From a virus (lineage: Duplodnaviria > Heunggongvirae > Uroviricota > Caudoviricetes): a DNA stretch of 49,583 bases. A program made the position numbers and the translations under genes. The stretch covers positions 1-49,583 of the IMG/VR virus record IMGVR_UViG_2737471854_000004. One strand, given 5' to 3'. Below the pieces are notes generated by a model. It worked only from the letters and a program-made list of their open reading frames with translations. It was not told where the DNA came from and made no database searches. Shown one piece after another: positions 33,442 to 34,200 of the stretch. Every line of letters begins with the position of its first letter. Positions within the stretch are counted from its first letter, which is position 1.

Positions 33442-33597
33442 TTACTCCCCAAGTTCGTAAGCTGTGAAGACAGCGGCCTCCGTCTGGTCGGTTCGGATTC
33501 GTACCTCGCAGAGGTCTTTCCTCGTTACCAGTACCGTCACTATAACGATTAAACAGATGACGATCAGGGTGATTAACATCGCCTTTTGCTGCTTCAT
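33442..33597 (-). CDS. hok: Hok/Gef-family type I toxin
   Basis: MKQQKAMLITLIVICLIVIVTVLVTRKDLCEVRIRTDQTEAAVFTAYELGE, near-identical to HokD/RelF as I recall it; an in-frame upstream extension (to 33654) occupies the usual mok position. Confidence 0.75.
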   Translation of the reverse strand: MKQQKAMLITLIVICLIVIVTVLVTRKDLCEVRIRTDQTEAAVFTAYELGE

Positions 33598-34200
33598 AGC
33601 CCGCTTCTTCTTGCCTTTCAGCACGTAAGAGACTAACCTACGTTTGTAAGGCATAGATTGGGCCCCAGATTAATGTTAAGCCTCTTGCCGGATGCGTAAT
33701 ATCAACTGGGGTTTTTTCTATCTGCCTTTGATTTTCATGCCCAAGGCAGATAGCCTCAAGCCCCCGCAGCCATACTATTTAACCCCCGTTACCTCGCCAA
33801 TATGAAATCAATCAGAAAGGCGATCCATAAGAACAATAGCAAGACAATAAATTGCCACCACAGCCGCAATAGCCAACGCACACTTGAGAACCAGCACGAC
33901 AACCTCCTGTATTGGACGTGCACCTGCCCTGATAAATATGAGGCTGTCTCGTCAGTGATTCAAAACAACTATTGGGTATAGTTTCTGTGATTTTGTTCTG
34001 TAGAAATGGAACACAACAACCAGTCACCACCAGCACTTCTTTAAATACGCTAAGTCCGACGCAAGCTAACCTTCTAGTCCGCTTTGAGCGAGGAGCGGAC
34101 CTGACATTGGGGTATGTCAATTTATGGGAGCAGGTCAGGGGCATTAATGCCCCCATATGGAATAAGTTTCACCTTGACATTAATAATGCTCTTGGGACAA

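Follow-up and report, generated by a model that had tools for sequence, protein, structure and literature searches.

A hok/mok/sok-type cassette, probably of low output, in a Rac-type prophage of E. coli

Type I toxin-antitoxin systems have their textbook example in hok/sok. For a Hok-family reading frame within an accessory region, the question is whether the remaining elements of such a system surround it, and whether this particular allele can still act. The first-pass annotation of the window (the whole stretch of DNA analysed, 49,583 nucleotides) had posited a hok-type type I toxin module inside an accessory island, leaving its sok promoter unlocated. Our analysis confirms the module, places a sok promoter and terminator within it, and identifies the island as a Rac-type prophage. 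Taken together, we consider it about 80% probable that this is a hok/mok/sok type I cassette of the hokW/hokD type, belonging to the lambdoid-prophage lineage and complete in structure, working by an R1/Sp5-like mechanism and probably with low output.

Setting and reading frames of the cassette

The stretch is E. coli chromosome, and the cassette is carried by a Rac-type prophage at ttcA, where it occupies the nin region. The prophage genes intR and xisR adjoin ttcA, so the carrier can in principle be lost; its annotation lacks lysis and head genes, and the prophage is defective. The full cassette extends from about 33800 to about 33355, and the interval 33442-33700, to which the module had at first been assigned, takes in the reading frames and part of the leader. 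Its nucleotide sequence is 87% identical to hokW/mokW/sokW of phage 933W, with mok, hok and sok mapping coordinate for coordinate. Rfam RF01794 also matched at 33592..33765 (91.7 bits; gathering score 59), and as this 'sok' match sits on the hok strand, running from the hok +1 to the hok AUG, it backs a conserved leader and not the orientation of Sok. Public databases already name the toxin: RefSeq annotates the locus in NZ_CP123009 as a Hok/Gef protein, and the exact protein is present on 53 NCBI contigs as 'type I toxin-antitoxin system Hok family toxin'. The PGAP label at the locus covers the 51-codon toxin only, whereas the sequence allows mok, Sok, the two promoters and the RNA boxes to be mapped as well. 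For comparison we aligned 80 related loci, R1 and 933W included, and performed codon-level tests on 72 unique relatives.

The toxin gene, a 51-amino-acid reading frame recovered as proposed at 33597..33442 on the minus strand, matches Pfam PF01848 HOK_GEF over 42 of 42 profile positions (E=1e-17, 63.9 bits, cut-off 22) and PHROG 251, 'MokW-like host killing' (6e-28). With the NCBIfam Hok models the scores stay short of the cut-offs (36 bits, where 73 are required), since these models were built for other subfamilies. Its product shares 85% identity with HokW and 38% with R1 Hok, and hok is intact in all 72 unique relatives, where synonymous changes are slightly over-represented (p = 0.022). 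Relative to the commonest Hok allele of its group, the window protein has seven amino-acid differences. A UACG at Tyr47 (33456..33459, minus strand) matches a TadA editing motif, and TACGAA is invariant there in 80/80 aligned loci; A-to-I editing by TadA at UACG is reported to recode Tyr to Cys in hokC/D/E (bioRxiv 10.1101/2025.08.07.668861). The window protein also carries G37D and V41A, for which Hok G38 and V42 are the R1 positions to compare, as hok-SD G161/G162 are for its SD change.

An in-frame extension in the usual mok position had likewise been described, and it is present as a 70-codon frame (33442..33654, minus strand) whose ATG at 33654 lies 19 codons upstream of the hok ATG and which coincides exactly with annotated mokW of phage 933W. 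Whilst mok is in frame with hok in the window, it appears to be out of frame in the R1-type sequence L003. The mok ATG is retained in 71 of the 72 relatives, and protein-level evolution of the 19 mok-only codons is neutral, with 12 synonymous as against 36 non-synonymous variant types (p = 0.54), a combination that fits a leader needing only to be translated.

Both ribosome-binding sites depart from the family sequence. The mok Shine-Dalgarno (SD) sequence reads GGGG (33663..33666, minus strand) where 76/80 relatives including R1 have GAGG, and the responsible A>G change at 33665 corresponds to R1 A106G, a laboratory-isolated loss-of-toxicity suppressor that locks the truncated mRNA closed, strongly inhibits Hok translation and abolishes toxicity (PMC9841398). 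The hok SD reads AAGAAG instead of AAGGAG (33607..33612, minus strand; GGAG in 76/80 relatives including R1), and its duplex with the 16S 3' end is worth -4.8 as against -8.5 kcal/mol. Between the two lies dcb, GUCUC in the window and GCCUC in relatives (33629..33633, minus strand), which is complementary to the GGGGC of the mok SD region and carries a lineage-specific C>U at 33632. In R1 dcb overlaps the sok promoter, and the same overlap is found here.

The hok mRNA and its antisense RNA

We then placed the non-coding elements by alignment with R1 hok/mok/sok (parB), and all of those named for R1 were found in the same order: tac, ucb, mok SD, dcb, fbi and a terminal 3' stem-loop. The hok promoter has a -10 of TAGTAT (33772..33777, minus strand; TAGAAT in relatives), which fits the pattern TAnnnT and aligns with the R1 -10, TATGAT, mapped by experiment. 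A candidate -35, TTGGCG (33795..33800), is inferred and weak, read from the sequence at 17 nt upstream of the -10; its position is not conserved in relatives, as the homology block begins near the -10. The full-length mRNA predicted from R1 homology spans 33355..33765 on the minus strand, with an uncertain 3' end and a +1 at G 33765, 6 nt after the -10, where the RF01794 match also begins. Its 5' end reads GGGGGCUUGAGG, and R1 and the window share a G-rich 5' end followed by CUUGAGGCU.

A 416-nt hok mRNA is predicted to fold at -147.2 kcal/mol (z = -4.56) into a structure whose two ends pair with each other. Across the 80 relatives, 90.5% of cells are paired, as compared to 37-46% when the partners are slid, and both-sided changes occur in ten pairs, with the leader hairpin and the ucb/SD hairpin covarying. 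The long-range contact is formed by tac (GGGGGCUUGAGG, 33754..33765, minus strand; GGGUGCUUGAGG in relatives) and fbi (UCUCAACGCAGCC, 33382..33394, minus strand), which pair in both the MFE and the centroid structure with an ensemble probability of 0.75. Only 10/12 positions are paired in the window, where tac carries a lineage-specific U4>G change at 33762, as compared to 12/12 in 69/80 relatives, and the duplex energy is -9.9 kcal/mol in the window versus -19.3. We also considered an alternative register in which GGCUGCG (33771..33765) pairs perfectly with CGCAGCC in the fbi region; this was rejected because transcription would have to begin 5 nt or more before the homologous +1, directly abutting the -10.

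An inverted repeat with 9-nt arms had been placed upstream of the module. The repeat is real, however its arms are 11 nt long (33718-33728 and 33743-33753, 100% complementary, 14 nt apart) and it lies inside the leader of the predicted hok mRNA, where it forms nucleotides 13-48 as the first hairpin, with an 11-bp stem and 14-nt loop (33718..33753, minus strand). The window has a single instance of the 9+14+9 pattern and 100 shuffles have none, and compensatory changes affect 3/11 pairs of the hairpin in the 80 relatives. Downstream, the anti-SD box ucb (AACCCCAG, 33706..33713, minus strand; AGCCCCAG in relatives) carries a lineage-specific G>A at 33712, the equivalent of R1 G71, and pairs with the mok SD in a closed-state hairpin (33663..33711) whose complement on the other strand is the Sok terminator hairpin. 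At its base CCCCAG (33711..33706) pairs with CUGGGG (33668..33663); compensatory changes are seen in 6/18 pairs, and the C.A mismatch of this helix falls at the same position in R1 and in the family consensus, whilst the hairpin is longer in the window than in R1 by about 16 extra nt. The alternative partners remain complementary: tac and ucb form four G-C pairs and one U-A across a C.A mismatch (-9.1 versus -10.7 kcal/mol), and the mok SD and dcb, as read from the sequence, form 5 pairs, two of them G-U.

Beyond the stop codon, a GC-rich stem-loop, GCGGGGA-GAAA-UCCCCGC (33416..33433, minus strand), corresponds to the terminal stem of the truncated, active mRNA. At least 95% of relatives keep its 7-bp stem paired, and one of the pairs covaries; in R1 the 3' stem is required for stability of the truncated mRNA (PMC9841398). 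At the expected hok terminator (33355..33379, minus strand) the window has a weak hairpin, AACCTGATTGGCGGGTTTACTTC, where relatives have CCCGCTTCGGCGGG and a T run; a terminator scan of 33200..34200 returned none at the expected hok 3' end, the next on the minus strand being at 33230..33214.

On the plus strand, homology places a sok promoter with a -35 of TTGCCT (33611..33616; identical in 56/80 relatives including 933W) and a -10 of TAACCT (33634..33639; identical in 57/80), separated by a 17-nt spacer in 80/80 relatives; the R1 sok promoter has the same place and the same spacer length, and both hexamers and spacer are identical to those of hokW-sokW. The antisense promoter and terminator, whose absence the first-pass annotation had taken as the mark of an inactive relic, are thus present. 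At the sok positions a generic scan of 33200..34200 for sigma-70 promoters and terminators was blank, and the promoter matches the sigma-70 consensus at 7/12 positions, so that the case for it rests on sokW and R1 homology. The predicted Sok RNA of about 72 nt (33646..33717, plus strand) begins at G 33646, ends at 33717 in a hairpin and U6, and maps base by base to the annotated 71-nt sokW of 933W. It is predicted to fold, at -20.7 kcal/mol, with its first 14 nt unpaired and complementary to the mok start, followed by an extended hairpin and U6; the hokW-sokW hairpin is stronger, at -31.1 kcal/mol. In Sp5 hokW-sokW, sokW RNA was detected, and changing the same -10 hexamer from TAACCT to GAGCCG with primer YO-421, for a control devoid of the promoter, abolished antitoxin activity (PMC8621323).

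Proposed mechanism and attenuation of the allele

Every element of the cassette is present, in position and conserved, and the fold-back of the mRNA is predicted from its sequence; the steps that follow are modelled by homology on R1 hok/sok and Sp5 hokW-sokW. The weak hok promoter (-10 at 33777..33772) would yield a stable mRNA of about 400 nt from 33765, in which tac would pair with the 3' fbi and ucb would bury the mok ribosome-binding site, so that the full-length mRNA would be neither translated nor bound by Sok. Slow 3' trimming to the GC stem-loop (33433..33416) would strip fbi, after which tac could turn to ucb as its partner, releasing the mok start. Abundant, short-lived Sok would then pair with the mok start and mark the duplex for RNase III, blocking translation of mok and therefore the coupled translation of hok. 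Should Sok synthesis stop, Hok would be made and inserted in the inner membrane, and the cell killed or arrested. Toxicity of Hok and its neutralisation by Sok with the help of RNase III have been shown for hokW-sokW (PMC8621323) and for R1.

The closest characterised system is hokW-mokW-sokW of the Stx2 phage 933W / Sakai prophage Sp5 (AF125520; PMC8621323), which has the same order of elements (mok of 70 codons, hok of 51, sok of 71 nt), lies at the same lambdoid place between the replication genes and the nin/Q region, and has the leader hairpin, ucb/SD hairpin and 3' stem-loop in common with the window. The window differs from it at the mok SD (GGGG versus GAGG), hok SD (GAAG versus GGAG), tac (GGGGGC versus GGGUGC), ucb (AACCCC versus AGCCCC) and dcb (GUCUC versus GCCUC), in its 10/12 as opposed to 12/12 paired tac/fbi positions, and in that its host prophage is defective. 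GGGG, GAAG and tac U4>G are each found in 4/80 sequences. The mok SD GGGG, a hok SD devoid of GGAG and two tac/fbi mismatches, together with a sok promoter that has no G at -14 and the missing canonical hok terminator, suggest that the window allele is probably a low-output variant. We put the chance that the cassette can still kill once Sok is removed at somewhat under even.

The effect of A106G cannot be transferred from R1 with certainty, as the co-occurring changes in tac (33762), ucb (33712) and dcb (33632) may compensate for it. One relative (L145) has GGGG alone, with consensus tac and ucb; the window and another relative (L142) have further tac and ucb changes. One tentative and rather improbable reading of this pattern is that the window lineage harbours a naturally re-tuned hok mRNA folding switch, produced by compensatory evolution across alternative RNA structures. 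On that reading the mok SD would have changed first from GAGG to GGGG, followed by the coupled changes of tac U4>G and of ucb from AGCCCC to AACCCC or AGUCCC; the lineage-wide dcb C>U would have accompanied them, leaving all four mutually exclusive helices pairable.

Relic, phage-related role or addiction

We posited that the cassette may be a silent relic, intact in outline, in which degraded ribosome-binding sites and an RNA locked closed would mean that Hok is never made and the locus merely hitch-hikes with its prophage. We hold this reading doubtful. The mok SD change equals one proven in R1 to cause loss of function (PMC9841398), the core of the hok SD is gone, a canonical terminator is lacking and the prophage itself is defective, with neither lysis nor head genes annotated. 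On the other side, neither the hok and mok frames nor either promoter is disrupted, and tac, ucb, SD and dcb have changed in a coupled way that leaves all four helices pairable, which resembles compensation and not random decay. MFE and ensemble folding of the predicted truncated mRNA do give a closed state with the SD paired (probability unpaired 0.02; tac-ucb 0.05), however the active 933W allele reaches a tac-ucb value of just 0.11, and as opening is not predicted even for active 933W/Sp5, folding cannot decide the matter and we did not use it as evidence of inactivity. Nor is the closed ucb/mok-SD hairpin more stable than that of 933W (-16.1 versus -16.8 kcal/mol). Inactivity of chromosomal hok loci had been suggested by others before, according to bioRxiv 10.1101/2025.08.07.668861, whereas 42/45 diverse Hok peptides were toxic in the survey reported there.

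Insertion sequences also bear on the relic reading, as IS186/IS421 lies inside the 3' stem-loop in 6/8 of the nearest relatives. When compared to hokD (relF) and the other chromosomal loci hokA, hokB, hokC/gef and hokE, the window copy keeps the full leader, sok and fbi, and is free of IS. Pedersen and Gerdes are said to have described, in 1999, IS186/IS421 just 3' of hok in K-12 hokC and hokE, and K-12 hokD presumably lost its upstream regulatory part to the relBE operon. PGAP gives the name 'hokD' to loci 94.5% identical to the window, and a hok-DUF1367-DUF1364-DUF1133 block is shared with other prophage remnants.

An active cassette with a phage-related role, either hastening lysis on induction as Sp5 hokW-sokW does or aborting infection by other phages when host transcription is shut off, an effect reported for R1 hok/sok against T4, we consider improbable. 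Deleting hokW-sokW, 87% identical and at the same position between replication genes and nin/Q, halves the yield of Sp5, and HokW appears after RecA-dependent induction (PMC8621323); that study shows hokW-sokW to aid lysis and phage release on induction, which it measured in place of maintenance, and it demonstrated activity with arabinose-driven hokW and not the native promoter alone. The viable phages mEp460 and HannyBb have a cassette at the same position, R1 hok/sok on a high-copy plasmid lowered T4 plating, and a HEPN-domain gene is among the neighbours of the window cassette. A Rac-type prophage with no annotated lysis and head genes would, however, have no progeny to release; hok shows no enrichment around defence systems (12%, where 9.4% is expected), PADLOC models gave no credible match among the neighbouring genes, and the attenuating changes apply to this role as well.

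The functional addiction module stabilising the island that had initially been inferred is unsupported, and a fully active module that kills prophage-free cells and thereby stabilises the prophage is distinctly unlikely: all cassette parts are present, the carrier has an integrase and excisionase and could in principle be lost, prophages are enriched about four-fold in hok genes, type I systems are reported to aid prophage maintenance and a single chromosomal copy of R1 hok is toxic without Sok, but the window allele carries the A106G equivalent, a weaker hok SD and a weaker fold-back, deletion of hokW-sokW from Sp5 altered lysis timing and phage yield with no reported stability phenotype (PMC8621323), and chromosomal hokA, hokB and hokC mediated no post-segregational killing (Pedersen & Gerdes 1999, as relayed in bioRxiv 10.1101/2025.08.07.668861). 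Post-segregational killing was demonstrated for R1, which, as opposed to the window cassette, resides on a plasmid. Measurable stabilisation of the prophage by the cassette is a slim prospect.

As to the complete, probably low-output cassette that we favour, it adds little new biology, since the hokW-sokW branch of prophages is already characterised and the exact protein and locus are publicly annotated. Its practical value is in annotation, through the full map of mok, Sok, promoters and RNA boxes. As a natural carrier of the R1 loss-of-toxicity change beside altered partner boxes, the allele is also a possible test case for the folding-pathway model, and could help to tell activity from decay at hok loci of chromosomes and prophages.

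Finally, an unannotated reading frame at 33897..33808 lies directly upstream of the hok promoter. It comprises 29 codons, returned no match in Pfam, NCBIfam or PHROGs, and would encode a membrane peptide from a near-consensus SD; it travels with hok and may be part of the cassette.

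Coding frames and leader of the hok/mok/sok cassette

On its minus strand the window carries a 51-codon hok ORF (33597..33442) and a 70-codon mok ORF that opens at ATG 33654 and shares the stop of hok, bearing out both the Hok-family ORF and the in-frame upstream extension proposed by the first-pass annotation. The 70-aa product matches Pfam HOK_GEF (1e-17), and the 51-aa product matches PHROG 251, 'MokW-like host killing' (6e-28). We aligned the locus to that of phage 933W, in which mokW, hokW and sokW are annotated, and to an R1-type plasmid locus; a further alignment set it against 71 unique relatives taken from IMG/VR and GTDB genomes. 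The 933W features map to 33654 (mokW), 33597..33442 (hokW) and 33646..33716 (sokW), and hokW-sokW is the closest studied homologue, with 87% nucleotide and 85% protein identity to the window cassette. The hok/sok identification is correct, and we place the probability of family membership with canonical regulation above 0.95; the system was already known and already annotated.

The hok frame is intact in 72/72 unique relatives, with synonymous change mildly in excess. Across the same set, 71 retain the mok ATG, the 19 codons unique to mok are unconstrained at the protein level, and in 12 mok does not run intact and in frame into hok, lying in another frame or stopping before it. Judged from sequence, this is the pattern expected of a leader that would matter only through being translated. 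Hok codon 41 (33475..33477, minus strand) reads GCC (Ala) in the window versus GTC (Val) in all 71 other unique relatives, a substitution that none of the other compared sequences shares.

The hok -10 hexamer, TAGTAT (33777..33772, minus strand), aligns with the experimentally defined R1 -10, TATGAT, and we therefore predict the hok +1 to be G 33765, giving the mRNA 5' end GGGGGCUUGAGG. The match to Rfam RF01794 also starts at 33765 (91.7 bits versus a gathering score of 59). Named 'sok antitoxin', this family matches the hok sense strand from the start of the mRNA as far as the hok AUG (33592..33765), and thus marks the hok leader rather than the strand or orientation of Sok.

The 416-nt transcript from 33765 has a predicted folding energy of -147.2 kcal/mol (z = -4.56), with the mok SD sequestered by the ucb box in a hairpin. 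In both MFE and centroid structures the 5' end folds back onto UCUCAACGCAGCC (33394..33382), forming the tac/fbi pairing. On an 80-sequence alignment of hok loci, 90.5% of cells in the helices are paired, compared with 37-46% when partners are slid by 1-3 columns, and ten pairs change on both sides, a number reached by 1/500 shuffles. Three of these covarying pairs lie in the leader hairpin, six in the ucb/SD hairpin and one in the GC stem-loop 3' of the hok stop; tac/fbi is almost invariant (96.8% paired). The inverted repeat described by the first-pass annotation is present (its pattern arose in 0/100 shuffles) and slightly longer than claimed, with 11-nt arms at 33718-33728 and 33743-33753 placed 14 nt apart, but it is not an upstream element: it spans nt 13-48 of the predicted hok transcript and forms the first leader hairpin.

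Promoter and terminator of the Sok antisense RNA

The sok promoter, which the first-pass annotation had not localised, lies on the plus strand and comprises TTGCCT (33611-33616), a 17-nt spacer, TAACCT (33634-33639) and, after 6 nt, G 33646; R1 has TTGCGC-17-TATCCT in the same place. Among the 80 aligned relatives, 933W included, TTGCCT is found in 56 and TAACCT in 57, and the spacer is 17 nt in every one. The predicted Sok RNA (~72 nt) leaves its first 14 nt unpaired, as a tail with complementarity to the mok start region; a long hairpin with CCCCAG/CUGGGG at its base comes next, and then U6. On consensus alone the promoter is weak (7/12 matches), and a generic promoter/terminator scan missed both the sok promoter and the sok terminator. 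In Sp5, sokW RNA has been seen by Northern blot, and antitoxin activity was lost when the sokW -10 was mutated, with a mutagenic primer that alters exactly the hexamer TAACCT (PMC8621323). An antisense promoter and terminator (TTGCCT-17-TAACCT; hairpin and U6) have thus been located, so the ground on which the first-pass annotation would have dismissed the module as an inactive relic, a lack of both, falls away.

Allele-specific changes and function

The window allele departs from highly conserved columns at 20 positions, seven of them within named regulatory boxes: tac (33762, U>G), ucb (33712, G>A), the mok SD (33665, A>G, GAGG to GGGG), dcb (33632, C>U), the hok SD (33609, G>A, GGAG to GAAG) and fbi (33394, C>U; 33384, C>G). 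The GGGG, GAAG and tac changes each occur in 4/80 sequences. Pairing of tac with fbi covers 10/12 positions in the window versus 12/12 in 69 relatives (duplex -9.9 versus -19.3 kcal/mol), and the hok SD pairs less stably with the 3' end of 16S rRNA (-4.8 versus -8.5 kcal/mol). Where the relatives have a canonical terminator, CCCGCTTCGGCGGG and then a T run, the window has a weak hairpin whose T tract is poor, and the dcb change also costs the sok promoter its G at -14. The mok SD change is the most informative: when R1 hok/sok was subjected to saturation mutagenesis, toxicity was abolished by A106G, which alters the GAGG of the mok SD; the extra pair with anti-SD C74 locked the truncated mRNA closed and Hok translation was strongly inhibited (PMC9841398). 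At the corresponding position the family consensus shares this C.A mismatch with R1, and A>G at 33665 closes it likewise. The window allele is probably attenuated.

The GGGG lineage has eight members in IMG/VR. In one member (L145) tac and ucb keep the consensus alongside GGGG; the others carry extra changes in both boxes, either the window's combination of GGGGGC and AACCCC or GGGGGC/GGGGAC with AGUCCC, which weaken the closed helix or strengthen tac/ucb and look like compensation. The closed ucb/SD hairpin is not more stable than that of 933W (-16.1 versus -16.8 kcal/mol). Taken together, these observations mean that the A106G counterpart does not prove the allele dead. In ensemble folding the truncated window mRNA stays closed, but opening of the active 933W allele is likewise not predicted, so this approach cannot decide the state of the window allele. 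That it still kills once Sok is removed we regard as possible, at slightly under even odds.

In 6/8 of these nearest relatives, IS186/IS421 lies within the GC stem-loop ~22 nt after the hok stop, in either orientation and with fbi removed (IMG/VR records L004/L138; L005-L007, on the same contigs as L139-L141; L143; and L144); the window copy has no IS. K-12 hokC and hokE carry an IS at the same target just 3' of hok.

R1 hok/sok mediates PSK and lowers T4 plating, and hokW-sokW is a working type I TA system whose deletion delays lysis after mitomycin C and halves Sp5 yield (PMC8621323). The suggestion that the window copy acts as a functional addiction module and stabilises the prophage is unsupported, and measurable stabilisation by the cassette seems unlikely.

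A Rac-type prophage setting

Three E. coli O155:H21 isolates (NWU_1, NWU_3 and NWU_4) have chromosomes with 100% identity to the 901 bases around the cassette, which also have lower-identity matches in 4,775 of 5,426 complete E. coli genomes. In NZ_CP123009 the cassette, where PGAP places a 'Hok/Gef family protein', lies inside a Rac-type prophage adjoining ttcA, in the order intR, xisR, ralR, recT, recE, kilR, repressor genes, ydaU/ydaV, an accessory stretch, hok, DUF1367, DUF1364, DUF1133 and tail genes. The 'accessory island' of the first-pass annotation is therefore a defective lambdoid prophage; hok has the same position in viable lambdoid phages, with the replication genes on one side and the nin/Q region on the other.

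The same prophage holds a second type I toxin-antitoxin system, with the RalA antitoxin sRNA (47849..48027, minus strand; Rfam RF02694, 223.8 bits) adjoining the annotated ralR toxin gene, and a tRNA-Arg gene (anticodon TCT; 30148..30223, minus strand) downstream of the Q-like DUF1133 gene. Directly upstream of hok, 34201..35622 (minus strand) encodes a protein of 473 aa that includes an LA2681-like HEPN domain (Pfam 4.2e-31), and a 92-aa ORF follows (35668..35946); neither matched PADLOC defence models, and this may represent an uncharacterised moron or defence gene of the prophage. Window 37013..39318 (plus strand) reads as two ORFs (37013..38488 and 38773..39318) where the NWU_3 record (L002) has a single 756-aa hypothetical protein (14782..17052), which suggests a frameshift or stop relative to that record, or a coordinate-mapping offset; this region gave no Pfam match and only a marginal PADLOC hit (PDC-S05, E = 0.0017).

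An unannotated 29-codon ORF with a GTG start (33808..33897, minus strand), MLVLKCALAIAAVVAIYCLAIVLMDRLSD, is preceded by AGGAGG, an SD close to consensus (-11.0 kcal/mol for pairing with the 16S 3' end), and stops 7 nt before the candidate hok -35. Its product matched nothing in Pfam, NCBIfam or PHROG and is a 'hypothetical protein' in NCBI. The ORF is intact in 17/17 loci having the ~300-bp upstream block, with 12 synonymous versus 10 non-synonymous variant types (74% non-synonymous expected, p = 0.004) and variable columns distributed 7:4:11 by codon position. In the phage collection it occurs in only four records, all with this hok type and always adjoining hok, and is possibly a real small membrane protein travelling with hok.
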